A stretch of 64,000 nucleotides of DNA from Emiliania huxleyi CCMP1516 (GCF_000372725.1 NW_005201286.1:1-64000), one strand, 5' to 3'; shown: positions 6,248-63,288, counted from the stretch's first letter. Numbers and translations: made by a program. Notes: a model not told the origin generated them from the letters alone.

Positions 6248-8620
6248 ATGCGCTTCCTCGTTCTTGCGCTCCTCGCGGCGGGCACCTCCGCATTGCTAGC
6301 ACCGCTCCGGGCTCGTCCGGCCTACCGCGTCGCCCGCATCTCTCTTTCCGAGCCAGTGGCGGACGACGCGATTGTGGACGAGGCGACAAACGCCGCCGCT
6401 GAGACGGACGCTACGACCGTCGAGGTCGAGGTGGCCCTGCCGGCAGCAGCGAGCGTCGCGGAGAAGGAGGAGACGCCCGACCGTCGCCTCATCCTTGGCG
6501 GCGGCGCCGGCGTTCTCGCGCTACTCGCCTCCAAAACCATCTTTGCTCCTCCTCCTCCGCCGCCGCCACCGCCTCCGGCAGCCAAGGGGAAGAAGGGCGA
6601 GAAGGCGAGCAAGCCGGCGAGCAAGTCGACCGCGGCTGCGGTCAAGGCGGCGCCAAGGAAGTCCGCAAAGGCGCCGCCTCCCGCCAAGGCCGGCAAGGCC
6701 AAGCCGGCGGCAAAGGCTCCGGCGCCGGCGTCAGCAGCGGCGGGCAGTTTCTCGAACGCCGCCATCGCTGCAAATGCAGTCACGCTCGCCGTCGCGGCGG
6801 TCGCGGCGAGTTCGCCGTCCGCGCCCGACCCGCGCTTCTCCTCCGTCCGTCGTCGCCGCAGCCCCGTCGCCGCTGCGCCGCGCCGCGCCGTCGCGCCAAG
6901 CTACAAGCCGAGCGCAACGACCGGCAGCGGCGCGTCACAGGAGGCATCAGCAAGCCTGATATACACTCGACCTCTCGGCTCTTGTGCCAGCTCTTCGCCC
7001 CCGCATCCTCGACGGCTTCCTCCTGCCCTCCGCCCTCTCTCCTCTCCTCTCTCCTCTCCTCTCTCCTCTCCTCTCTCCTCTCCTCTCTCCTCTCCTCTCT
7101 CCTCTCCTCTCTCCTCTCCTCTCTCCTCCCCACCTCGCCTCCGCACGCCTCCGCCCTCCCAACGTAAGCTCCCGCCTCCTCTACTTCCTCGAACACAGGC
7201 ACTTGCGCGGAGGCGTGCGGTGCTGCGGGGCTGGGCGGCGCAGGCTCGCGCCTCAAAGGGGTCGACCTCCCGCCCCGCCGCGCAGAGCCGGCCGGCGGCC
7301 GCTCGCCGGGTAACGGCGGCGCCGCGGCCTCCGACCCGCGCGACCCCCTCTCCCAGCAAGGCTGCCAGCAGGCAGGCGGCGGCGATCGCTGCGGCGGACG
7401 CGCGGCTCTTCCCGGCCACCGCGGCGGCCGAGAAGGCGGCCAAGGCGAAGACGCGCGCCACTTCTCCCGCCGCCAGGAAGCCGACACCCGCACGTGCCTC
7501 CTCGCTTGCCGGCAAGTCACCCTCCGCCGCCAAGGCGGCGGCAGCCAAGGCGGCGGCAGCCAAGGCGGCGGCAGCCAAGAGGGCGGCGGCGGCAAAGGCG
7601 GCGGCGGCGGCGAAGGCGAAACTCGCAAAGGCGACGGCCGCGAAGAGGCAGGCTGCGGCTAAGGCGGCGGCGGCAAAGAAGGTGATTCTCTCACCCTGCT
7701 CTCACCCACGCGCACCCCGCCTTGCGGTCTGAAGGCTGCGGGGTACCTTCCAACTAGCCAGCCTTTGAGACGCGTATTTCACTCTTCCTGTGTACTTCAG
7801 GCGGCCGATGCAAAGAAGGCGGCGGCGGCGGCGAAGAAGACGGCGGCAGCGAAGCTCGCGGCGGCGAAGAAGGTGCCGACCGTAGACACTTCCTAGACAC
7901 TTCCTAGACACTTCCTAGAGAAGAAGGTGCCGACCCAAGCCCTCTCCCTCTCCAGCTCCTCTCCAGCTCCTCTCTAGCTCCTCTCTGCCCGCTCCTGTCT
8001 GGCTCCTCGCCCGCTCCTGCTCTCGACACCTCCCGTCTCCTCTTGCCCCCCCCCCCCACCCCCCCCCCCACACACACGCTCACACCCACACCCACCACAC
8101 CACACCACACCAACACACACACACCCCTATCCCCCGCCGCCCGGGTCCCGTCCGCAGACGCCGGTCAAGAAGGCTGCCAAAAAGGCGCAAGGCCAGGGAG
8201 GGGAGGGTGGAGTGGGGTNNNNNNNNNNNNNNNNNNNNNNNNNNNNNNNNNNNNNNNNNNNNNNNNNNNNNNNNNNNNNNNNNNNNNNNNNNNNNNNNNN
8301 NNNNNNNNNNNNNNNNNNTAAGAACACACAAGCCCGGCGTAGCCGAATCACATAGCGCTACGGAGCTCGGTGCAAAAAGTTCCCAACCCACGCAACGGGT
8401 AGTTCATCGCTTCGTGAAGACACAGTCTCGCTGTTACGCGCTCAAAAGAGATAACAGCGGCAGGGGAGGCTTGGGGGAGCTCTTCACAGCCCGCGCGTGT
8501 GTGGACAGGCCGTCAAGAAGATCGTCGTCAAGCGGCCCGCGCCAAAGGCCCGCCACTCCCCCCCCCCATCCCCACCCCCTTTCTCCTTTCAAGAGGTCAC
8601 CGTGCCGCCCCTGCCTTCCC
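6248..8620 (+). CDS. Multi-exon Ala/Lys/Pro-rich protein with signal peptide plus transit-like peptide; spans a gap, 3' end uncertain
   Basis: MRFLVLALLAAGTSALLAPLRAR..., an internal hydrophobic segment and AAAKA repeats. Exons separated by ctctcctctcct and tagacacttcc arrays. Confidence 0.55.
8219..8319. other. Assembly gap
   Basis: Run of N. Confidence 1.
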
Positions 8621-9479: not shown

Positions 9480-10979
9480 GCTGGCCTAGGTCCGTCAGCA
9501 CCGGCGAATCAGCGTGTGTGAGCACTCGAATACAGCCCCTCAGCGGAGTACATCCAAAGACGCGTCCTCTCGACGGCCAGCCGCGCGGCAATGCACCGCC
9601 CTTTGGCGTTTCCGCATCTATAGGGCCGCTGGCCGATTGGACCGAGAGCGGGTCCAGGAAGGGCTCCTAAACAAGACAAGAGTGCCACCCGTAAAAGGAG
9701 GGTGCGTGGACGCAAGACCAAGGTCGCGTCCAGCACGGCGCTCCGTCGGCACGACCACACCCTCCGGCTTGGGGGCAGACTCGGCCGCCGCAGGGGCCGC
9801 CGCCGCCGCCGCCGCCTTGTGGCAGGTTGGGTAAGGCTGANNNNNNNNNNNNNNNNNNNNNNNNNNNNNNNNNNNNNNNNNNNNNNNNNNNNNNNNNNNN
9901 NNNNNNNNNNNNNNNNNNNNNNNNNNNNNNNNNNNNNNNNGGGGGGGGGGGGGGCCTTCGTGTCGGCGCTCGGCGACGATCCGCCCGCGGCGGCGGCGGC
10001 GGCCAGGAGGGCGGCGGCGGCGCCGAGGATCGGAAGGAGCGGCGGGCCGGTTGGCTTTGGCTTCGGCGGCGCGGGCCTGTGCGAGGGCAGGCAGGGGTAG
10101 AGGCACGCGCACGGCATATCTCCCCATATCTCCCCATAAGGTAGAGGCACGCGCACGGCATCGATGACCGGCTCTACGTCGGCATGACTACCGTCTCTCG
10201 TCTAGTGCTTCTCCTTCGCGCCGCTGTTCTGAGCGGTACTCTGGCGGATGTGCGTCTCTCCGAGGGCTGATAGGGCGACATGCGGGTAGCTGGCGATTAT
10301 TCGGCATCTGGGCGTGCGGGCTTGAAGAAGAGCGCGTAGCCGGCGAGGAGGGAGAGGGAGGCGACGCCTTGCGCGCGGCGGTCGACGTACGTGCGCGAGC
10401 CAACCACCTTTGGCCCTGAGGGCGAGAGGGAGGGAGGAGGAGGTGGATGAGGAAAGGTGGTGAGCGCGGCGGTGAGGGTTGCGGTGAGGGTGACGGTTGG
10501 GAGGGTGGCAGTGGCGGGGTGGGGACCTGCGAGCGTGATCTTCTTCTTGTCGTAGCCTGTGCGCGAGATGCCGCGCCGGCCGGTCACCTAGAGGAGGGAT
10601 GCGGGCATCACAGGCCGGCTAGTCCGCGGCGTTCAAGTGCAAGGTTGGAACGGCGATGGCAGGCAGCACATACCTTGTTGGCGTCACGAGCGGCGAGGTA
10701 GCTTCCCGAGGACGAGGGTAACATCGAGTCCTTCCACGAGGGGTTCCAGCCCTTTGCCGCGTACCGCGCGTCGGCGCTGCCGCGAGCGGCCGGCCTAGCA
10801 GGGGTGGGCTTCGCCGCCGGCCGCTTTGGCTTTGCGACGCTGACGCGCGGCCGGGACGCCTTTCCCGACGTGCGAGGCGGGGGCGTGACCTGCATGATCG
10901 GTTGCGCCGCTCGGGCCGGCGCGGTCGCTGCCAGAAGCGCGTGCGTCGGCGCGAGGAGACAGATGAGAGCACCGAGCAT
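9480..10979 (-). CDS. Multi-exon probable plastid-targeted Pro/Ala/Lys-rich protein; spans a gap, 3' end uncertain
   Basis: MLGALICLLAPTHALLAATAPARAAQPIMQ (bipartite-like leader), GT donor after DANK, later exons with hydrophobic segments (SLSLLAGYALFF; LLPILGAAAALL). Confidence 0.5.
9841..9940. other. Assembly gap
   Basis: Run of N. Confidence 1.
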
Positions 10980-14117: not shown

Positions 14118-15947
14118 TCAGTGCAAGCTCTCGAGCCTCGCCACGCCATCGCGACGCCGTGCCGCCACGCGCGCCGCCACGAGGAGCGGCAGAGCGGCGG
14201 CAACGAGCACGAGCGCCGCGGAGAGGAGGGCCCGCGCTGATACCGCGCCCGCGAAGCCGCGCACTGTGGCGGCTGGTTGATCGGGCAGCAGCCACCAGCC
14301 GCCGCCGGCCTGCGGGTGGCGGGTGTTTGTGTGGCGGGTGTGTGTGGCGGGTGTGTGTGGCGGGTGTGTGTGTGTGTGTGTGTGGCGGGTGTGTGTGGCG
14401 GGTGTGTGTGAGAGGGGCGAGGTGGGGGGGGGAGGGGGGGGGGGCTTCACGTGGGAGCGAGACGATGAGGGGAGTGAGGCGTCGGGGGGGGGGGGCTACC
14501 ATATCACCCACGGGACCGAACCCACACTGGGTTCGATCCTCTGGAGGTATGGTAGGCCTGAGCGAGTCCTCTCCACCGGGGGGGAGGGGGCATATGTGCA
14601 GGCCCCCAGTACGGATGTCGGGGCTCCTCACCACCCCCCGAGGTCCACCGGTGTGAAGGGGTACCCGCTGGGGGGTACCCGCAGTGTCAATCCGCCGAGT
14701 GTGGGTGGGAGACGCAGCCACTGGGTGGGGCAGACGCAGCCGGGCACGCGACGGGCACGGCGCTACGCCTCGCCTCCTCGGGCGGCACACCGTAGCCGTC
14801 GCACACGCCGCAAGTCGCGCGGCAGACGCGGGAGGCAAGAGAGGGCGCGGCGGCACACACGCCGCGGCTGTCGTCGGAGCAGCCTGAGGAGCCCACACTG
14901 AGAGCGCTCATGGGGGGGGAGGAAGGAAGGGGCAGAAGGCGTGGCTGTCGGCGGAGAGCAGCCTGCGACATCACTAGGAAGTGTCTAGGAAGTGTCTAGG
15001 AAGTGTCTAGGAAGTGACTAGGCGGAGAGCAGCCTGCGACGGTGTCGACACACGGCGGCAGAGCGGGCGGCAGCGGCGGAGGTGCTGGCGGCGACGTGGC
15101 GGTGCAACATCCTGCGCACGCGTCTCCGCAGAGCAAGGCAGCCTCCTCACAGTGCTGTCCGATGCGCCGCATCTCCAAGCAAGTCGCGCGGCCGCACATC
15201 GCGCGGCACGCCGGAGGGGCGGTCTGGGGCGGCGGGTGAGGGGCTGGCGGAGGAGGCCGCGCCGCCGCCGCCGCTGCTTTGTCCGCCAGCCTGCCAAGCT
15301 GTTGCTGCTGCTGCCGCTGCTGCTGCTGCGCGCTGACACGCGCTGGGCCGTTGCTGCCCAGGCGCTGGTACTCGTCCTCCGCGCCGGGCAGGGACAGCCC
15401 GGAGCCGGCGAAGCCGGCCTTTTGCAGCGCCGCACGGCCATTGCCGGTCAGCTCGTTGCCGAGTAGCCCCAGCGTCTCCAGGGCGGTGTTTCGCTCGAGC
15501 GCAGCGCCGAGGGCAATGGCGCCGCGGTCTCCGATCGCGTTGTTCTCGAGGTAGAGCGTCGCCAGCCCCGAGCCAGGCGAGGAGAGCGCGTCGGCGAGGG
15601 CGACGCAGCCCTGTCCGGCGGAGGCACGGTGTGAGTCGGCGGAGATTGGTGAGGCGTCGAGTGGCCGTGAGTGGCCGTGACCATTGGCGCACCTCGTCGC
15701 CGATTCCGTTGTTAATCAGGCTCAGCTCCAGGACGCTCGGAGCATCGGCCAGTGATGTAGCAAGCACCTTGACTCCGGAGTCACCAAGGCCAGCGTCGCT
15801 CAGGGAGAGCACGGTGCAATCCTTGAGCTTGAACGACCAGCCCGGTGCCCATGGCAGCCTCCTCCCGACGTCTTTGATTACGCACTCCTTGGAAAAAGCG
15901 CCACCGAGCAGCAGCGTCGTGAGGCCAAACGTGGAGAGGGAAGGCAT
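14118..15947 (-). CDS. Signal peptide + RNI-like leucine-rich repeats + Cys-rich ShK-like modules + C-terminal TM; multi-exon
   Basis: MPSLSTFGLTTLLLGGAFS leader. LRRs LSLSDAGLGDSG, LSLINNGIGDE and LYLENNAIGDRG. Cys motifs CGDACAGC and CRATCGVC. Terminal hydrophobic ALLSAALVLVAAALPLLV. Confidence 0.6.
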
Positions 15948-16683
15948 CTCGGCTGCTTCTTTGGCCTTGTGGGCGGGCCTCTGACGTCGGACCAAGGCGG
16001 TGACGTTGGGCTTCGAAAAAACGAGATTGGAGAGGGCCTCGTGTAGCCCTCCTTTTGGTATATATAATAAAAAAACGATGCCGAGGCGGCGTTGCCGTGC
16101 TTCAGCATGTAGCGCGCGATGATCGCCTCCTTCGTGGGCCGCAAGCACAGGTACTTCGCGTTCTATTCCGCGCCGGTGAGCTGCGTGCGGGAAGTGCTTG
16201 CCCGGGACCACCACGTCCATGCCCATGGTCTGGAGCGTCGTGTTGGCTGGCGGCATGAGAGCTGAGGCTGTTCGTTTCGCGCGACGGTGCACAGCTTATT
16301 CGCGCGCACCGCTGGTGTGAACCAAAAAGAACGGGGGAAAACAGGCAGAATCTTGGAGAGCGAGAGAGAGAGAGAGAGCGAGAGAGAGAGAGGCTTTGAG
16401 AGAGATTCTTGAGGAGGCTTTGTACAATCTGTGACGCAGCCGCTACGCTGCCACCGCGCGCAAAATAGCGGCTTAGGCGCGCGAGCGCATGCCTGCTTTT
16501 CTCTATACTCTTTACCCACACCCGCCCGGGGGATCTACAGCAAGCAGCCGCCAGCCCATTGCGACACAGATCGTGTGCTGTTCGGCGAAACTGCGTTTAA
16601 GCTTTTTCTTTTTGGAGAGCGCATTCTTCGCGCGACTTTTTCTTTTTTGCTTGGCCAATCCAGTGTTTGCTCGACCCTCGACG

Positions 16684-22930: not shown

Positions 22931-23632
22931 GAGAGCTGGTCCGCAGCGGCCCCCTGAGGTTTTTTGCTCAATCAAGACACAGAGCTCACACAAGATCACA
23001 GCGGGAGGAAAGCGGCGAGTCGCAATTCCTGGGGTCCTTGTGGCGGGCCACCCCTTCGGGAGAGCGAACATCTCGGGATACGTTTCACGGTGTCCTCCGC
23101 CGGGCGACATGAAGGCGTCAGTTGTTGTAGAGTACTTAAACGGTCCCTTGCCAAACCCGTCCCACCCTTTGCTGTGCTGCGCCAACACTCGGACGTGCCT
23201 CGGCACCACGACGGCGTGCCTCGGCACCACGACGGCCAGCGACCCAGCGAGGCTGGCGTGTGCGGTGAAAGGAGCGGCGACGGATTTACTCTAAACGCGA
23301 CGCTTGGCGTGGCGGCGATGATGAAGGCGCTGAGGCAAGAAGCGCGCCTCGCTTAATATTAGAAGCACGGACATTGCGCTCGTTTTTCTCAATTTTCGCG
23401 CCCACCGATCGCCTCGACGCGCTCTCGAGCCCCCGCTCGAGCCCCCGCTCGAGCCCCCGCCCCAGACCTCAGCGGCTGCGCCGGGTCGTCGTCGGCGCGC
23501 GGGCCGCCCAAGGACGCCGCCCAAGCGCGCGTCCGCCTCGGCGCCCGTGCACCGCGAGAGAGCCATCCGCTGGCGGGCGCCGTGCGACACACCGCCCTCT
23601 CTGACGTAGCCGCCGCGTCTCGACTCGGTGAT

Positions 23633-28389: not shown

Positions 28390-31300
28390 CACTCTACAGG
28401 GCTCACTCGGAAGAGAGAACTTCGCCAATGTTGCGCGTCTCTGTTCCTCATTCCCGCGGGCCCTGACCCAGGCAGCTGCCCACCCCCACCCCCACCCCTC
28501 GCGCGCGCAACACGTCTGGATGCAGCGAGATTGCCCGATATTACTCGAGATTGCCCGAGGGGTGCAGCACGTCTGGGTGCAGCGAGCAGCCGATGTGCTC
28601 TCCCGCCGCCAGGCCGCAATCGAACCCCGCCTGGTTGCAGTCACACGCCACGCTGGTGAGACAACCGTGTCACGCCCCCCCCCCCCCCCTCCTCCTTTGG
28701 CAAGCAGGGCGGCCGCCCGCCTCCTTCCACGCCCGGTGCATCGTGCCGGGCCGCTCGTCAAAGAGTATGTCGTCGCCGCACCTGACACCGACATGGGCGG
28801 CCAGTCACTTCTCGTCGGGAGCCAGACCAGACGTCAGGCAAGACTCCGTCGCCGCACCAGCGCGTCGCGTAGCCTCGCCTGCGGCGCGTCGAGCTGGCCG
28901 GGTTGCCTGCGGGCTCCGAGCAGGCAAGGTCAGGCACACTTCTCCACACGCACGCGCGGTGGTAGGGCAGGGGTCCAGCGCAGCCCTCGCATCTCCGCAT
29001 CCTGACAGGCAGGAGCCCCACGGCACATCCCCTGCGCCATCGCGGCGTGGGAGAATCTCGAGTAATCTCGGCTGCCGCTCGGCTGCCTCTCGGCTGCCTC
29101 TCGGCTGTGTCTCGGCTCGCCTGGGGCGCCGTGCATCATCGCAGAGTAGAAGAGGAGCACGTCGCCCGGCGCCTTCAGGGAGGATCGGACAAGCTCCGGG
29201 AGAGGGTTTGGAGAGGGTTTGGAGGAGGGGTGGAGGGGGGTTGGAGGAGGGTTGGAGGAGGTTCGCAGGGTTCGGAGGGTTCGAACGGGGCGGTGGAGCC
29301 ACTCTGGGCGAGTCTCGGCGTATCTCGGCGGCCATTCTCGGCACCATGTCCCAGCCGAGCAGCTCGTACTGGCCGCTGGCGACGCCCGCGTCGATGTCCG
29401 GCACGGGCGGGTAGCCTTCTGCGCCGTGGTACACGTTGCGCGAGTCCACCTGCAAGGGGGGCGGAGGTATCTGCATTATCTCGGCAGTATCTCAAGTTAT
29501 CTCGGCAGTATCTCGGCTACATCTCGGCCAGGAAGTGTCTCAGAAGTGTCTCGGAAGTGTCTCAGAAGTGTCTCAGAAGTGTCTCGGAAGTGTCTCGGAA
29601 GTGTCTCAGAAGTGTCTCAGAAGTGTCTCGGAAGTGTCTCAGAAGTGTCTCAGAAGTGTCTCGGAAGTGTCTCAGAAGTGTCTCGGAAGTGTCTCAGAAG
29701 TGTCTCGGAAGTGTCTCGGAGGTGTCTCGGAAGTGTCTCAGAAGTGTCCCGGAAGCGTCTCTGACCTCGTCCGAGCCGGAGAAGTTTGTGATGCGGTGCG
29801 TCAGGCCCCAGGTGTGCGAGCCTGTCATGCACCACAGCACCGATGTCATAAAGTGAGATCACTAGCAGCAAGAATGGAGCCGAGCCCCCAAGAGGGCGAG
29901 CCTGCAATGCACACTGCTCATCAGCGATACCCTACCCAAGACTGCACCATGCCGCCGCCCCGAGTGCGCGGCCTTTGACATACGCGAGGCCTACAGACAG
30001 GCTCCGACCCGAGACAGCTCCAAGAGCGTCCTGCACGCTGCCTGTCATCGTAGACTGAGCTCTGAGCGCACACGAGCGCATCAGAGCTCATGAGAGATTA
30101 CGTCGTGTCTGTCCGTGTGTCGGCACTCACCTCTCTCCCTCGGCACCTGCTCACAGCCGGAGGCGCGTGAACAGACGCTCTTCACAGCCGCGCGCCCCTC
30201 TCTCTCCCTCGGCACTTCGTCGAGGGCGAGCCAGACCGAGCAGACCTGCAGATATGGGGAGATCTGGGGAGATCTGGGGAGATCTGGGGAGATCTGGGGA
30301 GATATGGGGAGATCTGGGGAGATCTGGGGAGATCTGGGGAGATGTGGGCGAGCCAGACCGAGCAGACCTGCAGTGTGTGACATACACGTAGGTGCTAAGT
30401 TTCTCCGAGACCTCGCGAGCGGGCAGTTATTCACAGCTGGGCAGTGTGGCGAGGGCAGGGGTGGGTGGTGTGTGACACATGCCGTCACATCGCATCACAC
30501 GACAGCGGCAGGAGCAACCACATGCCATGTGGAGTGTGCATGTGCTATCCTGTCACACCATATAGCCAGCATAGCACGGCCAGACCGACCGGAGCCTGCC
30601 GCCCCCGAAGCAAGTGACTGTGGCTCTGCTGCAGCGGTCACCCCCCGCTAAGCTGGCGACGGGCGCCTGCTTCCCATCCGTATGCTGGTGCTCTCCTCCG
30701 TATCATGAGATCAGAATGAAGGGACTACTAAGACCATTTGGCAGGCGCCTGCTTCCCGCGCAAATGCCAGTAGGACGTGTCGTTGTGCCACGGGGTCGGC
30801 GCCTGCAAAAGGGTTCCAGGACAGGTCTAGGACGGGTCTTGTGCCGGTAGGGCGTGTCGTTGTGCCGTGGGGTCGGCGCCGCGGTGCCCGGCTCCTTGAC
30901 GAAGAGCTGGTCGTAGAGGATGTGCGCCTGTCCACAGCGACATGGCTGTGAAGAGACGCCGTCCACACCCACTTTGGCCTGCACCTCGAGCGCATTTTGC
31001 CTGTCCACAGGGCTGCAGCAGCCGTGACGAGACGGCCTCTCGCCAACGACTGGCCGAGCTTCTGACTGCGCCGTCCGCGACCCCATTGCACGTGCGGCGA
31101 TGGCGCCCGCGCCTGAGGTGAGTGGCAACGACGCGTCGGTGGGCGGAGGTGGCGACGACGGCGGCGAGGGTGGCAGCAGCAGCAGCAGTGGGAGCGGGAG
31201 GTGGGGCGGGGCGCTGCAGAGCAAGGCGGAGGCAGGGCGGCGGCGGTTGTCACAGTGAGAGCGCGGTTGCGACGGGGGCGGCGAGAGGAGGCGCGGGAGA

Positions 31301-32530: not shown

Positions 32531-32604
32531 TGCGCGCGGGTCGGGATGGGTTTTGATTTTTTTCCAAGGTTCGTCACACTCCCCCCCGAGACCGCCGCGT
32601 GCCG

Positions 32605-33764
32605 ATGGCCTCCCACCGCATCGGCGCCCGCGTCTCGAGCCTCTCGCCAGCGCAGCTGTGCGCCATCATCGAGGCGCAGGCGGGCGCGAGCGACGCCGCG
32701 CTGCGCGTGGCGGAGGAGCACGCCGCTCGGCTCGTGGAGCAGCCCGAGTGGGTGCTCTCCGAGGTCCTCCTCTCGCCGGACCTCGCCCCGCACGTCCTCG
32801 CCCAGCTGCCGATCAAGGCGCACGCCGCCAAGGGGACGTGCCGCGCGTGGCGCCGCGGCTGGAAGGAGACGCTGAAGAAGCGCGAGAGGCCGCGCCTGCT
32901 CGTGATCGGCGGCGAAGACCGCGAGGGCGAGTTCCTCAGCTCGATGGAGCGGTACGACCCGTCCACAAACGAATGGGAGGAGGAGGCTGTGGCGCCGATG
33001 CCAACGACACGCAGGTGTGTCCGCACGGCGGTGCTCGATGGCAAGCTCTACGCGGCGGGCGGCCGTGGGGCTGACGGCGCAACTTCCAACCTGGTGGAGC
33101 GGTACGACCTTGCTGCGAACGCGTGGGATGCGGTGGCGCCGATGGTGACAGCACGGGATGCTCACGGCATGGCGGTGCTCAACGGCATGCTGTACGGCGT
33201 TGGCGGGTATGCTATTGACGACGTCCTCAGCTCGACGGAGCGGTACGACCCTCTGTTGGATCGATGGGAGGCAGTGGCGCCGTTGAGGACGGCTCGGGGT
33301 TGTCCGGCTGTGGCGGTGATCGACGGCAAGCTGTATGCGGTGGGCGGACAGGCTGACGACTTTGCCCTCCTGCGCTCGGTGGAACGGTACGACCCCGCTA
33401 CGGACGCGTGGGTCGCAGTGTCGCCGATGAGGACGGCGCGATGAGTCCGGCCGTGGCGGTGCTCGACGGCAAGCTGTACGCCGTGGGCGGGCTTGGCGAT
33501 GGAGGCGCTCTCCTCTCGGTCGAGCGGTACGATCCGGCGGCAGACGAGTGGAGGGTGGTGGCTTCGATGGCCACGGCTACGCAATCTCCGGGCGCGGCGG
33601 TGTTGGATGGCAAGCTGTATGCTGCGGGTGGGCGCAACGACGGTGGCGGTGCCGTCCTCAGCTCGGTCGCGCGGTACGACCCGGCGAGGAATTCGTGGGA
33701 GGGGGTGGCGCCGATGGCGACGCCAGTGGCCTGTCCTCTCGCTGTCTTTATCCCGTCAGTCTAG
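32605..33764 (+). pseudogene. F-box-like + kelch-repeat (about 6 blades) gene with frameshift near 33440
   Basis: Repeated VLDGKLYAVGG...SVERYDP...W..VAPM. Frame breaks at ...ACG GCG CGA TGA and resumes MSPAVAVLDGKLY. Could be a sequencing error. Confidence 0.75.
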
Positions 33765-39716: not shown

Positions 39717-40277
39717 TCCCCTCCCCCCCTCGGGAGGGCCGAACTGAGGCGCCCGAGGGGACCCCGCAATTCCCTTCCCCCCTCGGAGGGCCGGACTGAG
39801 GCGTCGAGGGCCCCACTCTTTCCTTCGCATAGCGGCCACTCTTCGGATCGCTGGTCGAGCGACCCGGGGGATGCCCCGCGCGCCTGACCCAGCACCCAGG
39901 CGCGGAAACGAATCTGCGAGGAGGCGTGGCCGCTCATGCGGCCCGATGGGGAGGAGGGGAAGACGTAGGGCGTGCTTGCGCGCCTTTCCGAGGCCCCTCC
40001 AACCCACCCGCGCTAGGTCTCGGGTTTGACGCATGGGGTCACTCCCGCGAAACTCGGGAACTAGCCGGGGCAGTCGGAGAAGTGGCAACTCCGTGCACTG
40101 ACGGTCGGCCGTCAGAAAACACGCCTCCGTGGCTCGGGTTACACCAATCCTCGCTACCCAACGCGGCCAAAGGATATCCACCTCGAGAACCTCGAGAGGA
40201 CCGCTCGCAAGAGACCATTGGGTTTGTACTATTAACAACGAAGGCGCTCTCAAAAAAATCGCGCCGCGCCGCCGCGA

Positions 40278-41613
40278 ATGCTCGCCTCCGCCCGCTACGA
40301 GCTGCGGCTCGCCGTTCTTCCGCCCGATGCCCTGATCGCGATCACCGCCGGCGCGATGCGGGACAGCCCCGCTGCAAACAGGAGGGCCGAGGCGCTCCTC
40401 GCCCACCACAGCCCTCCGCCCGCCGTCGCGACCGACGTCCTCGCAGACCCGGACCTTGCGCCGTGCGTGCTCGAGAGGACGGGCCTGCGCCACGCGGCCG
40501 TGTGCAAGCGGTGGTCCCTGATCTGCGCGCCGCGCGGTGCCTTCGCGCGGCTGGTGGAGACCGCTGGCGATGCCTCCACCAAGCGGCTGTCGGGAGAGGA
40601 GGCCGGCAGCAGGCGGGTGGACGCGCTCATCGGTCTCTTGCAGGTTGGAGACGAGGACGAGAAGGCGGACGTCGCGGCAACGCTCCAGGAGCTTGCCCGG
40701 GACGGCGATGAGAGCCGGGTGGCGATTGCGGCAGCCGGCGGCCTCGAGGTGCTAGTGTCGTTGGCTCGCGACGGGAATGAGGCGCAGAAGGAGCGTGCGG
40801 CGGCGGCGCTGTGGAACCTCTCTGCCGACCACGACAACAGCGTGGCGATCGCTGCGGCCGGCGGGGTCGAGGCCCTCGTCGCGCTGGCTCGCGACGGGAA
40901 TGAGGGAGAAGGAGAAAGCGGCGGGGGCGCTGTGGAACCTCTCTGTCAACGCCGACAACAGAGTCGCGATAGCCGCGGCCGGGGGCATCGAGGTCCTCGT
41001 GTCACTGGCTCGGGACGGGAATCAGGGGCAGAAGGAGCGTGCGGCGGCGGCGCTGTGGAACCTCGCTTACAACGACGACAACAGAGTGGCGATAGCCGCG
41101 GCCGGCGGGATCGAGGTGCTCGTGTCACTGGCTAGCGACGGGAATGAGGTGCAGAAGGAGCTGGCCGCGGGGGCGCTCAGCAACATGATTGAGGTAGCGT
41201 CTGGCACGCACGAGGGCGTCGTGGAGGCTGGCGGTGTGGCGGTCCTCTCCTCTCTCACGCAGGAGGCAGGCGCCCCGGGCGACTGCAAGCTCGCTGCTGC
41301 CATGGCACTTGTGTACCTGGCCGGCAGCTGTCCCGACCTCGCGGCTGACGACACTTGCCTCTCGCTGCTCCTCTCGCGGCTGGATCAGCCCGAGGAAGAT
41401 GGCTGGCGCAGAGACAGCATCGTCGCCCTCCTCGCCCTCGCAACCTCCTCGTCTGCGTGCGCTGAGCAGTGGCACCGGGTCGGCGGCGTGGCGGCGCTGC
41501 AGGCGCTGGCGCGAGAGACGGCGGAGGAGGGGGTGGAGAGGCAGGCGGAGAGGTGCGACGAGGCGCTAGTCAGCCTCGGCGTGAGGAGGGTGCGCAGGCG
41601 GACGGCCGCGTGA
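40278..41613 (+). pseudogene. F-box-like + armadillo-repeat gene with frameshift near 40903
   Basis: Repeated NRVAIAAAGGIEVLVSLARDGN..QKERAAAALWNL. One repeat is 2 nt short (gggaatgagggagaaggag), shifting frame. Confidence 0.75.
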
Positions 41614-47284: not shown

Positions 47285-47362
47285 GTAAGTGTTCGGAGCA
47301 CGCCCCATACCGGTAAGGAGCCGAACCCGAACCTCCCCGCCAACACGCCCACTTCGTCGCGC

Positions 47363-50300
47363 ATGCGCCACGAGCGCGAGGCGCTGGGCCTCGAGCACTC
47401 GCCGCGCTCCATCTTCAAGATGCTCAACGAGGCGGAGCACTCCGAGTCGCTGGTTTACCTCACCTGTTCGATCTGCGAGGAGGTTCTGGAGGACCCGCTC
47501 TTCACGCCGTGCCACCACACCTTTTGCGGTGCGTGCATCCGCGGCCGGCTGCGCGAAGGCGAGGAGAGCTGCGCCGAGTGCCTCGCGCCTCTGAAAGAGG
47601 GCGACCTGCAGCCAAACCTGATGGCGGCCAAGCTGCTCTCGCGCATGCGCTCGTGCTGCATCTACAAGGCGCACGGCTGCAGCTGGAAGGGACGCGTCTC
47701 CGAGCTCTCGAAGCACTACCGCAGCTGCTCGTACGCGGCCGGCCCCTGCCCGTTTGGGTGCGGCCGCAACCTCACGCCCGCGAGCTACGCCTCGCACGTG
47801 CTCTCCTGTGAGCTGCGGACGGTGGGCGACTGCCCGTGCGGGAGGAAGTACAGGTTCTCGGAGCAGCAGACGCACCGCGCCGTGTGCCTGCCCTACCAGA
47901 GAGAGGCGCGCCGCAGGGCGGAGCGGGAGGCCATCTCGCAAAAACTCCGAAGCTCGCGCAGGCACACCGCAGAGCTGCGAGCCACCTCCCGCTCGGTACG
48001 GCTCGGGGGCGCGCACGAGGCGGTCGAACTCGTCTCAGAGTCGCTGATCCCGCACCTCGTGGCGCTCGCCCTCTTCGCCATGCTGATCCAGCCGCTTCGG
48101 CGCGACGGCACGTTTTCCGCTGCAGTGTACAACATCACCGCCGCATACTCGCAGCAGGGCCCGCTTCTCCACTTCGGCGCCGTGCTGCTCGCAGCGTCGC
48201 TCGCGGCAGACGGCCTGTGGCGCGTGTGCCCTAGAAGCGGAAGACGGAACTCTTGTCTTCCAACTAGCGCTCGAGAGGACACGCACTCCGCTGCACTCGG
48301 CCGCATTCCGCCGTGTTCGTGGCACTACTCACATCCCTCGTATTCGCGCGGTGCTCTGAATGCTCTGCACACGGCCGCACTCCCGCCCTGAGTCTGGCGT
48401 ATCCACCGCCAACACTCTCTGCACAATACCGCACTCCCGCCCCGAGTCTGGCGCATTCGCCCTGCAGGCTCGTGGCGGGCGTGCACTCCTCAGACCCATC
48501 CCTCCTCTCCTTCCCGCCCTCGCCCCCCTCCTCCGCCCCGCTCCTCCCGCGCGGCGGCGCGGACGGCGGCGGCGGGGCGGCCGGCGGCGGCGGCGGCGCG
48601 GCGGGTGCAGGGGATGCGGCGGGCGGGGACCCGTACACACTGATGGAGAGAGCGCTCGGGTGGGCCGCCTCGATGCGCGCAAACGACGAGACGCTCACGC
48701 ACCTCTTCCTGCTGCTGCCGATCATCACCCTCAAGGCGGTCTGCCTCTTCCTCCTCGCCGAGGGACGCAAGGCCACCGGCCAGCGCGACGCCGCCGCGGC
48801 GCGAGCGGCGGGTCGCAACGCCAATCGGGGCGGGGGCCTCCCGACCAGCGGCGCCGAGAGCGGCGCTGGCGGGCTCTGCGGTGGCGAAGACCTCGGCGCG
48901 GCGCTGGAGAAGTACTTGGGCCGCGCCCTCCTCCTCGCGGGCTGCGTCCTCTCGCTGCTGCGCGCCGACGCGTCGTGCGCGCTCGGGCTCCTCGCCACGC
49001 TCGGGCAGCACGAGTCGAGGCTTTACTTCTCCCGCGCCCTGCTCGGCACCGCCCTGCTCGCGCTCGCAATGGACGCCGACTGGCTTGGCGTCGGAGGAGC
49101 GCGGGAGGGCGCGCCTTGCCGGCCGGGCCTGGCCGGCGTGCCTTGCGCCGCGGGGCTTGCCGCGGGTGAAGCGTGGCTGAACCCGACCTACCTCTGGTCG
49201 CTGCTGCTGCAGGGGCGGCTCGCGCTGCTCTGCACGGTGCTCGCCGCGCCACTCAAGCTCGCGCTCCTCCTCATCGGCGCCTACCTCAACTACTCGCAGC
49301 CGGCGGCGCCCACGCGGCCGTTCCGCTTCCCCGAGGCGCGGCGAGATTACCCGAGATTACCCGAGATTACCCGAGAATACCTACGCGGCCGTTCCGATTC
49401 CCCGAGGCGCGGCTCGAGCATGCGGCGGTGGCGCGAGTCTTCAAGCTGCGCCAGAGGAGCGCGCGGCTAGGCGTGCGCCGCCATCTCGCGCCATCTCGCG
49501 CCATCTCGCGCCATCTCGGGCCATCTCGGGCCATCTCGCGCCATCTCGGGTAATCTCGCGGCCAGGCGGCGCTGCCGAGGACGTCGACGAGGCGGAGGCG
49601 CGCTCGGCTATCGCAGGCGACATGCTGTCGAGGGACGCGGCAGAGGAGCTCGCCGAGGGGTTCCGGCGGCAGAGGGCGGAGGAGCGGCAGCTCGCGCTCT
49701 CAAAGTCGCTCTTCGCGTTGGGCTTCCTCTCGCTGCTGCTCGGCTCCGTCGGCGTCCTCTACGGCAGCGAGGGGATCGCGCCGTCCCTCTCCGCGCCGCT
49801 GCTCGAGCTCCCTGTCCTCTCGATGGTCGCCGCGTTCGGCTGCCTCTGCGACTCGCGCACGCGCCGCTCCCCGGAAGTGTCCCGGAAGTGTCCCGGAAGT
49901 GTCTAGGCTGCCTCCGCGACTCGGGCACGTGCCGCTCGTCACCACGCAAGTGCACTCGCTTCCTCTGGTCGACCGTGTACCTGCACTGCACGCTGCTGCT
50001 GCTGCTCTCGTCCGCGCTCGCCCTCTACGCCGCCGAGCTCGCGCACGCACCCGCTTGCTGCGGCTTCGCCCACCTCTCCCTCTTTGAGCAGCTGCAGCTC
50101 TGCACCGTCGTCGCGCTGATCCTCGTCCACGGCCACCGCCTAGACACGTCCTGGACACGCCCTAGACACGCCCTAGACACGTCGTCCTTCACGTCTTCTC
50201 GTCCACGGCCCCCTGCGCCGCCGATGGCCTCTCACGCCCCCCCCCCCCCCCCGGATCCCCCTCCCCCGGTGCGCACAGGCCTCGCCATCGCGACCGTCAC

Positions 50301-52155
50301 GCAGCTACTCGCCGCCATCTCGTCGCTCGCCTCGGCCGACGGCCTGCACGTCCTCAAGGCGGCCGCTCGGAGGGGCCTCTCCGTCGCGTGGGCGCTGCTG
50401 GTTGCCTCGCTGCTCATGCTGCTCGTGCGCCTCGACGTGGACATCGCCCTCGCCCTCCTCGCCCTCGTGGCGCTGTACGAGCTCCGCGCCGCGACCACCG
50501 CCGCCGCCGCCGTCGCCCTCGCGGCCGACGATGAGGGCGAGGACGTCGCCCTCCTCGCGCGCTCTCCGCACCGCGTGCCGGGCGGCGGGCTCACCGTGCT
50601 GCTGCTGCTGCCGGCGGCGGTGGCGGTGGACGTGGTCGACGGGTACGAGAGGCTCACGGGCTGGGCGGCGAGCGACGTTGGCGCGCGGGGCGAGGCGCAG
50701 GCGATGGTGTACACCGAGGCGGCGCTGCTGCTGCTCTGCGGCCTCAAGCTGCTCCTCAAGCTCCGCCTCGCCCTCGCCCTGTGGCGGGTGCGCGCGCTCG
50801 GCCGCCCCGCCGCGCTGGACGGGGGCGAGGTGCGCCGGCTGGGATGCACTGAGCGGGTCCTCTTCGCCGCGTGCGTGCTGAGCCTGGCCGCCGCGCTGGG
50901 CGCGCTCGACGCGTCGCTGCTCCCGTCCTCGCGGACGCTCGGCAGCCTGGGGCAGCCGCGCGACGAGGGCGGGGCGGCGGCGCAGGGCGGCAACGCGACG
51001 CTCGCCGCCCTCGCGGGGGGCGCCCTCCCCGCCAACGCGTCGCCGCACCACCACTTGGACGAGCGCCTGTCGAGCCGCGCATTCTTCGGCGGCCTCCTGC
51101 TGGCGCCGCGGGACACGTCCAGGACACGTCCAGGACACGTCCAGGACACGTCCCTCAGGCGGCTTCCTCCTGGCGCGGCGGGACACCTCGCTGCTCGGCG
51201 CGGCCCTCCGCTCCCCGCCGGCCGCGACCGACGGCGGCGACGGCGGCGAGGGAGGGCAGGGCGGGCAGGGCGGGCAGGGCGGGCAGAAGACTCGCCTCAC
51301 CCTCTCCGAGTGGCTCTCCCCCGACGGCGCCGCCGCCGCACTCAGCGCGGGACCGCTCGCGCTCCTCGCCGCCGCCGGCTGCACCCTCGCCCTCGGCGGC
51401 GGCGGGACGGCCCACTCCTAGAAGCGGAAGACGCATTCCTGGATTGCAATCAGCGAGAGGACGCGTCTCCGCTGCACTCGGCCCGCATTCGGCTGTACTC
51501 CCTCCCTTCACATCCCTCGTGATTCCCGCGGTGCTCGGACTCCTCTGCACAACGCTTTGGTCCCTCCCTGACTTCGATGTGATTCATGGCACAGGTTCCC
51601 ACCCTCGCCGACCTGCCCACCCTCGCGCCGATGGTTGCCGCCGGAGCGCCGGTGCTAGCCGTCGCCTCCGCGGCAGTGCTGCGGCGCGGCCCGCTGCAGG
51701 CGACGCCGCTCGAGGCCTTCCTCGGCATGCTCGCGGGCGGGAGGGGGAAGGAGGAGTGGTCAGAGGTTGGTGTCGGCACCGCCCTCTCGTCGTGGTTCCT
51801 CTCGCTTCAGGTGCCGCTCCTCCTCCTCGTCGCCGCCGCCGCGGTGGCGCTCATCCACAAGCGGCTGAGCGGCGCGGCAAGCGCGGACGCGACGCCGGCG
51901 CCACGCGCCCCTCGGCCGCAGTCGAGGGCGGTGGCCCGCGGTGCGAGCGGCGGGGGTGGCGGTGGCAAGGCCGCCGCCGGCGCCGCCACCGCCGGCTTTG
52001 GCGATGCGCGCGTCGCAGCGGAGGATGCGCTTCCCGAGGCGCGCGGCGGCTGTGCTCTCGCGACGCGCCGCAGCGAGACACGCGCAGCCTTCAGCACGCA
52101 TGCGTCGGCTCTGAACCGTACGGGGAGGCTGCGGTCCTCTCGCCCCGTCCCCTGA
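47363..52155 (+). CDS. C3HC4 RING + TRAF/SIAH-type Zn fingers followed by multi-exon multipass membrane region
   Basis: CSICEEVLEDPLFTPCHHTFCGAC...CAEC; C..KAHGCSWKG...HYRSC; CPFGC...HVLSC; CPCG...HRAVC. Many hydrophobic exons joined by GC-AG introns to a stop at 52155. Confidence 0.65.
48220..48467 (+). mobile_element. Introner-like intron, copy A
   Basis: GC...AG intron containing ctagaagcggaagacg...gagaggac...catccctcgt...cgcggtgctc...ctgcaca. Confidence 0.65.
51410..51594 (+). mobile_element. Introner-like intron, copy B
   Basis: Same sequence family. Phase-0 GC-AG intron. Confidence 0.65.
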
Positions 52156-56052: not shown

Positions 56053-59000
56053 ATGCACCGCCGCGCTCTCTCGCGCGTCGCCGCCTCTTCGCGGCCGCGA
56101 CTGCTCTCGCGCCACCTCTTGAGGCGGATGAGCACTGCCGCGGCCGAGATTGCCGAGCGAGGCGCCGCCGCCGGCCTCAAGTTCTACCAGTTCTCCTTCG
56201 TCGACCTCTTTGGTGTGCAGCGAAGCAAGCTCGTGCCAGCCTCTCGCGTCGCGGAGATTGCAGAGGGTGGCGCGGGCTTCGCAGGCTTCGCAGCGCACCT
56301 CGACATGGACCCGACGATGGGCGATCTGCTCGCCGTTCCGGACGCAGCGACGCTCACGCCGCTGCCGTGGCAGCCCGAGGTCGGCTGGCTCAGCTGCAAC
56401 CTTGTGCACGAGGACACGGAGCTCGCCCACGGCCCTCGCAACGTGCTGCGCAGCGTGCAGGCCAAGCCAGCAGTAGTACCTAGTAGGTGATCTGAGCAGC
56501 AATAGTAGGCGACCTGAGCTGCACAGATCGGACCACTATCCACGCCCAAGTGACTGGCGGCAGGAAACGTGGCTTCAACCCGCACAGGGACCGGGGAGAC
56601 GGGACACGCACGCACTGAGACAGAGAGTGAGCGGCGAGAACAGGAGAGCACGCATCATACTCAAGACTACTTACCCTGTATCAATTTACCCTGTATCAAT
56701 TCCTGTATGAACTACGGCTGCGCAGGCCAAGCGGCCGAGCGTGACTCTCGAGCTCACTGACCATGAGTCGATCTGAGTCCCTGTCGTGCCCACGTGCCGT
56801 TAACCAGTATGAGCTCCTCTCGGTGCAGGCCAGGCTGGCCGAGCACGGCGTGGCGCTCAAGACGGGCGTAGAGTGCGAGTTCTTCCTCCTCGACGGCAGC
56901 GCGCCCGCCGCCCGCCCGGCGCTCTCCGACCCGCTCGACGTGCAGGCGAAGCCGTGGTATGACGCGGGCGATCTCGGGTGATCTCGGGTATTCTCGGGTA
57001 TTCTCGGGCAATCTCGGGCAATCTCGGGCGATCTCGGGCAATCTAGGATGACCTCGGGTGATCTCGGGTGATCTCGGGTGATCTCGGGTGATCTCGGGTG
57101 ACCTCGGGTGATCTCGACGTGCAGGCGAAGCCGTGCTATGACGCGCACGCGCTCATGCGCCGGTACGAGCTCATCACCCCATGTCTCCCCATGTCTCCCC
57201 ATATCTCCCCGTATCTCCCCGTACCTCCCCGTACCTCCCCGTACCTCCCCATATCTCCCCGTATCTCCCCATATCTCCCCGTACCTCCCCATATCTCCCC
57301 GCAGGTACGAGCTCATCTCGACGCTGGTGAGCCACATGGAGCAACTCGGCTGGGGCCCGTACCAGGCGGACCACGAGGACGCCAACGGCCCCGACCGCGA
57401 CCGATGCGGAGGGTCCTCCGTGCGCGCGCGTGGCACTGAGCAGTGCCGACCCTTCCGAACAGGCCAGTTCGAGATCAACTGGGACTTTGACGACGCCCTG
57501 GCGAGAGTGCCCGAGAGACCCGAGATTGCCCGAGATTACGAGAGATGACTCGAGATTGCCCGAGATGACCCGAGATTGCCCGAGATTGCCCGAGGTTGCT
57601 TCGACGACGCCCCCGTGACCGCCGACCGCGTTGTGCTGCGCGAGCGGTCAAGTTGGCTCGAGCGAACTCATGCACTCACAGGTGACCGCCGACCGCGTGG
57701 TGCTCTTCAAGTACATGGTGCGCTCGCTGGCCGAGCGGGCCGGCCTCCGCGCGACGTTTATGCCAAAGCCCTTCGCGTCGCTGACCGGCTCCGGCTGCCA
57801 CGCACACGTCTCGCTGCACGAGCCGGGCACGGGCAAGAACCTTTGCCAGGGCGGCGCGCCCGAGGCGCACCTCGGCCTCACCCTCGGCCTCACCTCGGCC
57901 TCACCTCGGCCTCACCTCGGCCTCACCTCGGCCTCACCTCGGCCTCACCTCGGCCTCACCTCGGCCTCACCTCGGCCTCACCTCGGCCTCACCTCGGCCT
58001 CACCTCGGCCTCACCTCGGCGATTTCTCGGCGATTTCTCGGCTATGCCTCGGCTATGCCTCGGCTATGCCTCGGCTATACCTCGGTTGCACCTCGGCTGT
58101 ATCTCGGCTATACCTCGGCGATACCTCGCCTATATCTCCCCCCCTCGAGATGCACGGGCTATCACCGCTGGCGCTCTCCTTCACCGCCGGCCTGCTCGCC
58201 CACGCGCCGGCGCTCACGGCGCTCACCAACCCGACCGTCAACTCGTACAAGGTAAGCCTCGGGCAACCTCGGGCAATCTCGGGCCCATCTCGGCCCATCT
58301 CGGTCCCATCTCAAGCCACCAACCCAACCCTCGGCTCGTCCAAGCGGCTGGGCGCGCGCATGACTTCTTCGGGGGCGACGTGGTGCACTGACAGCCGTGA
58401 TTAGCCGAGAGTAGCCGAGAGTAGCCGAGAGTAGCCGAGAGTAGCCGAGAGTAGCCGAGAGTAGCCGAGAGTAGCCGAGAGTAGCCGAGAGTAGCCGAGA
58501 GTAGCCGAGAGTAGCCGAGAGCACATGTGCATGTGCTGTGTGACTACTCCGCGTGGGGGGTCCCCTACCCCCGGTATAGCCGAACCCATTTCTACCCTGC
58601 CAAGAGTCGAGGTCCTCTGTCGGTCCGGGGACCCGCATGACAGGGTCACACATGCATTGGCAGGTCGCCGACGGCCGCCACGTGGGCGGGGAACAACCGC
58701 ACCGCAGCCCTAGAGGCGGAAGACGCATTCTCGTGCTCCGAGTAGCGCTCGAGAGGACACGGACTCCGCCGTATTCACTGTCCTCGCACCCCTCGTACTC
58801 ACGCGGTGCTCTGAAGACACTGCACAATACCGTACTCCCGCCCCGAGGCTGGCGCCTTCAGCACGGTAGGCACCGCGCTTATCCGCGTCCCCGACGAGCA
58901 CCGCATGGAGCTGCGGCTCGACACGGACAGGAGCGCGAAGCCGAACCCACCGACTCACCAGCCGACAGTGGGCTACCTCCCAATAGGCTGGCCGACATGA

Positions 59001-59694
59001 GCGCCAATCCGTACCTGATGGCGGCCGCCATCGGCGCGGCCGGCCTCGACGGCCTGCGAGCGCGGAGTGTGCCGCCGCCGCCGACGGATCGCAAGCCTAG
59101 ACTACCCGAGATTACCCGAGATTACCCGAGATTACCCGAGAGTACCCGAGATTGCCCGAGATTGGCCGAGACTACCCGAGATTACCCGACGGACCACACG
59201 CCTAGAGTTACCCGAGATTGCCCGAGATTACCCGAGATTGCCCGAGATTACCCGAGCCTCCCTGGTGTGCAGGACCGCAACATGTACGACGCCTCCGATC
59301 CGGTCGTCGCCGCCGCCATCAAGGCCGCCGCCCCCCCTTCTCCCCCCCGCCACTCATCACTCACCCACAGCCACAGTTGCATTACACTTCTGCATTTTGC
59401 ATTCACACGTGCATGACATGATTTACTGCGGTGCCCCTCTGTCGCGAGGGCTGCCCGGCCCTTGCCCCACCACCTTGCGCGTGTGGAAGAGTTGACCTTG
59501 CCCCACCTCAGGCCTCCCCGCCGCTGCCGAGCAACCTGGCCGGCGCGCTCGAGGCGCTCGATGCCTCGAGCCCGCTCCGGTCGGGCCTGGGCGACGCTTT
59601 CGTGGACAGCTACCTCAAGTTGCGCCGGGCGCACTGGGCCGAGTACATGGCGCAGCTCACGCCGTGGGAGCTGGAGACGTATCTCGACGCCTAG
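56053..59694 (+). CDS. GlnT/GmaS-type glutamine synthetase family enzyme, 13 exons, mitochondrial-type presequence
   Basis: FVDLFGVQRSKLVPA, GAGFAGFA, KTGVECEFFL, YQADHEDANGQFEINW, ATFMPKPF..LTGSGCHAH, NPTVNSYKR, SGATWSP...GNNRT, ELRLAD..ANPYL. Exons 56053-56460, 56829-56945, 57125-57162, 57305-57387, 57463-57500, 57682-57864, 58150-58251, 58345-58382, 58664-58698, 58870-58915, 58987-59086, 59273-59323, 59512-59694. Confidence 0.9.
58699..58869 (+). mobile_element. Introner-like intron, copy C, with 7-bp duplication gcaccgc
   Basis: Removal restores NNRTALIRVP. Same family as 48220 and 51410. Confidence 0.7.
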
Positions 59695-59929
59695 AGCGAT
59701 CTCGGGTGATCTCGAGTGATCTCGATCTCGGCGTCGCTGGGGGACGACCGCTCACTTAAGTATAAAAGACACGCGCCGGCAGTCCAGACCCCAACGCGTA
59801 CAATTGCTACGGTAGAGGGCGTCAACCGTCATGTACTCTTCTTGGTTTGTTTCAAATAAAAAGACCGCCACATACACTGAAAAAGACGCCCCCCGCCCCC
59901 CCCCCCCCTCTTACCGTATATCATGTATC

Positions 59930-62713: not shown

Positions 62714-63288
62714 GAGGGCCGGATTTTTTTAACCTTTTAAGAAATGAGGAGATTGGGGGCTTAAATTGCCATTTAAGAAAATGCAGGCACGGGGGGTCAC
62801 TATTTTAAGACCGTGGTTAAGAAAATCCTTAGGGGACCCCTAGGCTTAAAAGGGTGGGCCCTGGGGCGCCTGCGGCTTAAACGGCTTAAAACTTGCCTAG
62901 GCAAGTTTTAAGAGCTGCTGGGCCGCCGATTCCTTAAACGGTCTTAAACGGTCAAACGACTCGGCAGCCTCCCCGCGCCCTTAAACGCGATCACACCATG
63001 AATGGTCTATACTCAAAACTTGCCGACGGGCGGCAAAAGCTCTTCGCTCGGCCCCGAGAGCGCTTCGCTCTCTGCCGCCCGCCCGCCCGCTCGCTCGCCC
63101 GCCCGCCCGCCAGCCTCCCCGCGCTTAAACGCTCTAAATGGCTCAAATGGCTCAGGTTGGGCGCGGTGTGCGATTCTCTTAAATGGTCTCTTAAATGGGA
63201 GCGGCAGCATGGGCCCAATCTCTTAAACGCACCGAGGCGGCTCTGGAGCCGCCAATCTCTTAAAAGGTCTTAAAAAAATCCGGCCCTC
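62714..63288. mobile_element. MITE-like element, ~30 bp terminal inverted repeats, TTAA-rich interior
   Basis: Left gagggccggatttttttaaccttttaaga versus right tcttaaaaggtcttaaaaaaatccggccctc. Many cttaa/ttaag motifs. Confidence 0.8.

Follow-up and report, generated by a model that had tools for sequence, protein, structure and literature searches.

The type III glutamate-ammonia ligase gene (GlnT/GmaS-like) of Emiliania huxleyi CCMP1516 contains introns in which a run of 10-11-nt repeats stands between two copies of the exon junction, and the question raised by this locus is how such introns were born. Spliceosomal intron birth outside the classical transposon bursts is an open question, and for break repair and duplication only a small number of cases, in which the repeats are short, has been put forward. 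A preliminary description of this DNA had read the duplications as long target-site duplications, produced by staggered breaks that were filled by templated repeat addition. In the analysis given here, duplication plus repeat run was probably left behind when repeats were copied in from another part of the genome.

The window (the whole stretch of DNA analysed, 64 kb) was compared with eight transcript-like runs, an independent contig (L001) and 120 homologous proteins. The runs were taken as RNA by guess; since spliced joints were present, they contain cDNA. Splicing of the GlnT gene was assessed in four runs from four studies. Transcript mapping over 19.5 kb was dominated by repeat-derived joints, and only contig pieces and one joint were counted. 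Published papers are quoted from excerpts of their text.

The GlnT/GmaS-like gene and its introns

Exon 1 was matched by the E. huxleyi CCMP1516 protein P0001 with 100% identity over 82% of the exon length, and the close homologs P0002 and P0029 scored above the TIGR03105 cut-off (type III glutamate-ammonia ligase). With introns 1-8 and 12 placed from transcript contigs and introns 9-11 from homology only, the 12-intron model (Table 1) gave a 473-aa frame that was identical to P0002 at 363 of 456 aligned residues (80%), in two blocks. Most junctions at 56053-59694 were misplaced or missed by the public gene model, P0001, in which two residues are dropped at intron 2, intron 4 is read through and exons are skipped. 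In a quick tree of 63 of the 120 homologs, rooted at the midpoint, the gene grouped with a wide range of algal sequences and stood well apart from bacterial ones, which indicates that it is old in algae; dating of the introns by horizontal transfer was rejected on this ground.

Table 1. Coordinates of the GlnT/GmaS-like gene, its introns and the duplication-flanked arrays of the window (arrow, exon junction).
Feature	Position	Strand	Description
Type III glutamate-ammonia ligase (GlnT/GmaS-like) gene	56053..59694	+	13 exons, 12 introns, 473 aa
Intron 1	56461..56828	+	GC-AG; without 10-11-mer array; internal exon-junction copy 56722-56740
Intron 2	56946..57124	+	GC-AG, 179 nt; both splice sites from duplicated AG↓GC
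Intron 2, duplication copy 1	56934..56966	+	33 nt, last 21 nt intronic; mismatch at 56957
Intron 2, array	56967..57112	+	14.6 ten-mers, GATCTCGGGT type, mixed variants
Intron 2, duplication copy 2	57113..57145	+	First 12 nt intronic
Intron 3	57163..57304	+	GT-AG, 142 nt; 12.4 ten-mers (ATCTCCCCAT type); duplication 57158-57175 / 57300-57317
Intron 5	57501..57681	+	GC-AG, compound: array, then 39-nt junction copy, then 44-nt non-array filler
Intron 6	57865..58149	+	GC-AG; 11-mer arrays; short decayed duplication (10 nt, 2 mismatches)
Intron 7	58252..58344	+	GT-AG, 93 nt; donor is array start, acceptor is duplication copy 2
Intron 10	58916..58986	+	GC-AG, no array; decayed 22-nt exon 11 copy at 58926-58947; boundaries by homology only
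Intron 11 (predicted)	59087..59272	+	GA-AG; two arrays, three junction copies, nested duplication 59081-59101 / 59186-59206
Kinase/RING-gene intron	49336..49406	+	34-nt duplication, 3.7 ten-mers; both sites from duplication; X1 and X5 contigs fit exactly
Kinase/RING-gene intron	49839..49906	+	32-nt duplication, 3.3 eleven-mers; acceptor completed by array end; X9 joins 49837 to 49906
Predicted intron of the same kind	51089..51158	+	32-nt duplication, 3.5 eleven-mers; 9-nt target/array microhomology
Event	7866..7935		16-nt perfect duplication around 3.5 eleven-mers
Event	10096..10161		22-nt perfect duplication around 2.2 ten-mers
Event	14950..15040		20-nt perfect duplication around 4.6 eleven-mers
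Event	28507..28586		23-nt duplication around 3.4 ten-mers; no GT/GC-AG register
Event	30224..30373		28-nt perfect duplication around 9.4 ten-mers

The nucleosome repeat is about 182 bp, and five of the 12 introns (171-188 nt) and the one of 368 nt lie near such lengths; CG periodicity in the window showed only a weak bump at 175-205 nt. Three exons of the gene are exactly 38 nt long. A short 10-mer array at 59694-59729 begins at the stop codon, is flanked by two imperfect copies of 9 nt and may have replaced the old protein end of the gene.

Introns 2, 3 and 7, with the duplications reported for them in the preliminary description, were recovered by in-register comparison. The intron 2 copies differed at one position of 33 (56957); the cut could not be placed by RNA within 23 identical letters, and AG↓GC was the sole GT/GC-AG register. 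At intron 3 the duplication was identical over 14 nt, or 18 nt with one mismatch, and at intron 7 (58224-58251 / 58317-58344) it extended over 28 nt with five mismatches. Exons 2, 3 and 4 were joined in one contig in three of the four runs, while the fourth contained the joint 57161>57304, with 14 shared letters. Splicing of intron 7 was supported by the protein alignment and by a loose end of 23 letters in run X7, which matched the next exon and fell below the 31-letter bridging threshold. Transcript joints and a 473-aa frame alignable to P0002 bear out the earlier statement that splicing is precise and restores the protein.

Assembly artefact or chance similarity was considered as a source of these structures, the reference assembly being known to contain artificial duplications (PMC4028052). 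The independent contig L001 nevertheless carried introns 1-3 with both duplications and with 0 differences over 646 exon nt; its array 2 differed from that of the window at 4 of 146 bases, and its array 3 was two units shorter. Unspliced contig pieces from three runs also spanned second copies (X4, 57082-57161; X2 and X7, 58282-58367). The unchanged structure in L001 rules out an artefact at introns 2 and 3. Taken with the divergence of the copies and with control rates of only 0.7-6% (given below), this leaves artefact or chance hardly credible as a general explanation. Upstream of window position ~55960, L001:1440-1543 was unrelated to the window, with a different microsatellite.

Both copies contain the joined exon junction, and duplication plus array make up the whole of introns 2, 3 and 7. 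The target was therefore intronless when it was duplicated, and there is good support for the gain of introns where none had been. No empty site was seen in L001, the one further allele, which has introns 1-3 as well. Each event preserves a dated record in its two copies of the original junction, of which one is under selection and the other unconstrained. It had been proposed that the intronic copy carries the mutations; this was true of 56957, where the exon copy keeps a conserved Cys, and of four of the five differences of the intron 7 pair (TNPTVNSYK in the exon, TNPTLGSSK in the intronic copy), the fifth being silent and not polarisable.

Splice sites were drawn from three sources. Both sites came from duplicated AG↓GY at intron 2 and 49336; the donor came from the duplication and the acceptor was completed by the array end at intron 3, 49839 and 51089; and at intron 7 the array gave the donor and the duplication the acceptor. 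The earlier rule of a donor from copy 1 and an acceptor from copy 2 thus applies to intron 2 and fails for the donor of intron 7, which consists of the first bases of the array. An acceptor derived wholly from the duplication was likewise too strict a rule, because the array end contributes part of it in several events.

A copy of neighbouring exon sequence (score of at least 20) was retained in 7 of the 12 introns, against 8 of 132 cross comparisons. Short in-register copies were present in introns 6 and 9, and no exon copy above background was found in introns 4, 8 and 12. Introns 1 and 11 each contained three copies of their own junction. Long duplications without the 10-11-mer period occurred at introns 1 and 10 and in the inner part of intron 5. 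The 39-nt copy of the exon 5/exon 6 junction in intron 5 (57599-57637) stays unspliced, and this intron is the product of two successive events, the array having arrived at a pre-existing donor. For intron 11 no transcript joint was seen in the runs, and only a GA donor restores the conserved protein. Where an existing splice site was struck (introns 1, 5 and 11; 50132-50278), an older intron was merely lengthened; not every duplication event yields a new intron.

Duplication-flanked arrays across the window

Thirty-seven stretches of period 10 or 11 were detected by an autocorrelation scan, and 26 arrays were left after 10 low-complexity rows had been removed and two neighbours merged. Flanking direct repeats (score of at least 24) were found at 10 of the 26 arrays, and at 7 of the 23 outside the three focal introns. 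In the controls such repeats occurred at a rate of 0.67% among 600 mismatched flank pairs and of 6.3% among 4422 random pairs of the same spacing (P ~2e-6 against the higher rate). An excess of junction duplications over controls, as the preliminary description had anticipated, is therefore present in this window. A strong flanking duplication was absent at 16 of the 26 arrays, including the long homogeneous ones at 58393-58521 and 29532-29761.

Nine of the ten duplications abut their array and, with three further ones, form a set of 12 clean events; an event at 50122 was excluded, non-array sequence lying between its second copy and the array. In this set, which was selected for having a duplication, the duplications measured 16-34 nt (21 mismatches in 307 nt total) and the fillers 22-146 nt (2.2-14.6 units), in both orientations and with no fixed ends. 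In two genes together, five introns built of a duplication and an array are backed by transcripts. Removal of six introns from the adjoining kinase/RING gene left 1756 codons with no stop. No transcript joint for 51089..51158 was seen in the runs.

A register restoring GT/GC-AG splicing was found in 11 of the 12 events, against 5.0-5.5 expected for random targets (P ~0.001), a count that includes the 59081 event, whose register lies on the non-coding strand and is due to chance. Outside the focal introns the count was 8 of 9 (P 0.005-0.01). Such an excess is a prediction of selection on exonic insertions. In 10.4 kb of coding sequence of the window, 93 of the 123 AG↓GY sites (76%) were AG↓GC; GC donors make up about 65% of 270 E. 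huxleyi junctions in PMC4028052, where they are ascribed to high GC content. The nearness of the two shares fits co-option of donors from exons, without proving it.

A strand bias of the arrays was ruled out, both orientations being present in two plus-strand genes. Arrays were concentrated in a few intron-rich genes of the window, and the EF-hand (16477-17541), ankyrin (23363-24985), kelch (32557-33441) and armadillo (40236-41610) frames were array-free; insertions may favour certain genes. At 14863-14956 a duplication of at least 17 nt surrounds a 60-nt non-array filler and adjoins the 14950 event, forming with it another nested pair at one splice site. Transcript contigs differed from the window by about 5% at 47359-48218 and by 0% in glutamine synthetase exon 1, which may mean that a divergent allele or a paralog is present in the window.

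Origin of the repeats and route of insertion

In 11 of the 12 events the modal unit was closer to another array (9-11 of 10-11 nt) than to its own target (6-8), so that the filler appears to be imported; judged by these sequence matches, it was likely templated in trans. In line with this, 229-324 contigs per run aligned to a 2-kb stretch, with the depth highest on the arrays. No donor array with an identical order of unit variants was found within the window. The duplications, variable at 16-34 nt, behave around the inserted filler as the long target-site duplications that had been proposed.

In the reverse order, a tandem duplication of exon sequence would have made a tiny intron first, and local slippage at its junction would have enlarged the array afterwards. 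In favour of this, the unit of the 51088 event agrees with its own target in 10 of 11 nt, arrays do change after insertion (intron 3 is two units shorter in L001), and tandem genomic duplication counts among the listed ways of gaining introns (PMC3296678). This order would require introns of 16-34 nt initially, however, and arrays adjoin both copies in 12 of 12 events, with units common to unrelated loci. The donor of intron 7, moreover, lies inside the array, so that the duplication alone would have been unspliceable. We regard this order of events as very unlikely.

Neighbouring units match at only 0.88-0.89 (11-12% of positions differ) in events whose duplications have 0-1 mismatch. The young arrays are thus already heterogeneous, and their variants were either copied in or made during synthesis. 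Their blocks of variants weigh against a dedicated telomerase-like enzyme acting on staggered breaks, where it would use a short RNA as template for the de novo addition of 10-11-nt repeats. So do the perfect-duplication events, which use at least two unrelated-looking unit types, the occurrence of non-array fillers, and a telomeric repeat reported as TTAGGG in E. huxleyi (bioRxiv 2024.05.26.595999). Such an enzyme would fit arrays that are primed on short overlaps and have no set phase at either end; the shortest young fillers (7866, 10096) are homogeneous, the majority of long-duplication fillers are pure array, and the unit types share, by eye, a GAGAY/TAGAC core. On balance it is an unlikely source. 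Of the earlier proposal of staggered breaks with templated repeat addition, staggered nicks may be kept, whereas de novo addition fits less well than the copying of a diversified array.

Junction microhomology in the 12 events summed to 24 bases on the left and 20 on the right, where 4.3 and 5.8 were expected. Without the strongest event the sums were 15 and 20 (3.8 and 5.3 expected); selection for AG↓G is able to inflate the right-hand values. Most junctions of the 12 events had 0-5 non-periodic bases. The reading preferred here, held tentatively and with a nearly even chance of being correct, is one of staggered nicks and microhomology-primed copying of an existing array, probably from RNA by a borrowed retroelement reverse transcriptase. 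Such an enzyme is favoured because the duplications of LINE and Penelope-like elements are long and variable, mobilisation in trans is known, and RNA with retained introns is abundant. Duplications of variable length are a signature of nick resolution by both kinds of element (PMC9977147), and Penelope-like elements, which leave a 30-40-bp tail, can mobilise intron-containing host RNA in trans (PMC8557442). Retained reads were reported in 478 of 535 inspected E. huxleyi introns (PMC4028052), which points to an abundant RNA template. One introner family of another haptophyte has a Chlamys element as its best hit (PMC12130899 dataset). No poly(A) tail, inverted repeat or constant end was found in any event. 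Of the 74 long frames of the window 53 were scanned, and none of these belonged to a family of reverse transcriptases, endonucleases or transposases, a result that says little on the genome.

Microhomology at both ends is equally typical of DNA-templated repair. In polymerase-theta-type end joining, or in replication template switching, part of another array would be copied in trans from DNA, and re-annealing 16-34 nt upstream would give a duplication plus filler. The microhomology at both junctions, the small number of non-periodic bases at most of them, the lack of fixed ends and of a tail, and the existence of non-array fillers all fit such copying. Such repair usually copies sequence beside the break, whereas in 11 of the 12 events the unit is closer to distant arrays, and the narrow 16-34-nt range of the duplications is unexplained by such repair itself. 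Break repair that leaves filler DNA and direct repeats is an established proposal for intron gain (PMC3296678), and DNA-templated repair or template switching is the main rival, close behind the reverse-transcriptase reading, possible but doubtful.

For copying by a reverse transcriptase, the following course may be envisaged. A staggered pair of nicks would open the target, and a nicked end would pair with an array over a few bases and prime the copying of 2-15 units. The copy would rejoin the other end through a second short overlap, and fill-in of the stagger would produce the 16-34-nt duplication. An exonic insertion would persist only if spliceable, either through doubling of a target AG↓GC or AG↓GT or through an array end that gives one site, and insertions that strike an old splice site would become part of the intron already there. 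Every new intron would in turn serve as a further template, and the repeats would spread themselves while encoding nothing.

By extension, the 10-11-mer minisatellites of E. huxleyi might form a non-coding selfish replicator, in which intron arrays are copied into exon sites with long duplications, the units carry splice-site halves, and a large share of the introns and GC donors has this source; this is a tentative possibility, its chances well short of even. Such a replicator would be a mass intron-gain engine without element boundaries, invisible to introner screens. If true genome-wide, these findings would mean thousands of datable gains in a major bloom-forming alga, would link the intronic 10-11-bp repeats with the ~65% of GC donors, and would account for E. 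huxleyi gene models that are often wrong at junctions.

Comparison with known systems of intron gain

Read et al. in 2013 reportedly found 10-11-bp repeats to be enriched in E. huxleyi introns and ascribed to them a role in splicing. Neither flanking duplications nor intron birth are mentioned in the excerpts of PMC4028052. A description of duplication-flanked arrays was not found in the literature, on which the supplements of the 2013 genome paper and of a 2022 introner preprint may bear, and none is given in the excerpts of PMC13518057, PMC10290126, PMC2784329, bioRxiv 2024.05.26.595999 and PMC10288648. The array patterns had no match in viral contigs. Four prokaryote-genome matches (L002-L005) were rejected, since they are short runs of 10-mers within bacterial sequence and show no sign of being related.

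Introners are said to have been presented as intron-generating transposons by Huff et al. in 2016. The present events resemble them in exon insertion, in precise spliceosomal removal and in the recurrence of related sequence in unrelated genes (PMC12130899), as well as in taking splice sites from the insert or from a co-opted target duplication. Unlike Introners, the fillers (22-146 nt) start and end in any phase, share only their units and are not alignable end to end; there is no fixed length, inverted repeat or LTR, and the duplications vary from 16 to 34 nt. With neither terminal inverted repeats nor fixed ends in the events, the distinction drawn earlier from classical TIR Introners is upheld. 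Three introner families (6, 5 and 45 copies) are listed for E. huxleyi, two unclassified and one called LTR, and one is noted with 10-bp terminal direct repeats (PMC12130899). Automated duplication values for these families, where given, are 2-4 nt, against 16-34 nt here. The arrays are set apart from them by description, not by sequence, and the two may overlap; families similar to one another through simple repeats or satellites were filtered out of that survey (PMC12130899).

Three introns of two genes in the window (48220-48467, 51410-51594 and 58699-58869) consist of one dispersed element of 171-248 nt, with a conserved start and about 69% mean column identity. It is preceded by a 7-8-nt copy of the first bases of the next exon, which provides the GC donor, and the intron at 48220-48467 is spliced in X3. 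This element looks like a conventional Introner family, of lengths unlike the three listed for the species. An AT-rich, MITE-like segment at 62714-63288 is bounded by a terminal inverted repeat of 19 nt without mismatch, with a second pair nested in it.

Intron gain by double-strand-break repair was reportedly described in Daphnia by Li et al. in 2009. The arrays share with this route a filler from elsewhere, direct repeats, junction microhomology and an intronless site (PMC3296678). The repeats here are far longer than its 5-bp threshold, at which no excess was seen in Drosophila (19 of 77 versus 26 of 100; PMC3296678), and in place of unique or mitochondrial DNA the filler is a repeat family that recurs genome-wide.

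Tandem genomic duplication as a route of intron gain is said to go back to Rogers in 1989. As in that route, a duplicated AG↓GY provides the donor from copy 1 and the acceptor from copy 2 at intron 2 and at 49336-49406. In contrast to it, foreign filler lies between the copies in 12 of 12 events and makes up most of the intron, and in some events it supplies a splice site.

Target-primed reverse transcription by LINE and Penelope-like (Chlamys/Naiad) elements also leaves variable and sometimes long duplications (PMC8557442, PMC9977147), and, in the excerpts of these papers, very short truncated inserts and the trans mobilisation of other RNAs are features resembling the events. No element body, tail, pseudo-LTR or constant 3' end was seen in the 12 events, and Chlamys inserts into (C)n or (CA)n tracts, whereas the events consist of 10-11-mers; Emiliania was not found named in the excerpts of either paper. 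Among these systems the duplication-flanked repeat arrays are best filed as a variant of insertion-driven intron gain that is widespread in the window, and the copying of repeats from other places would be a route to new introns that is undescribed and open to test.
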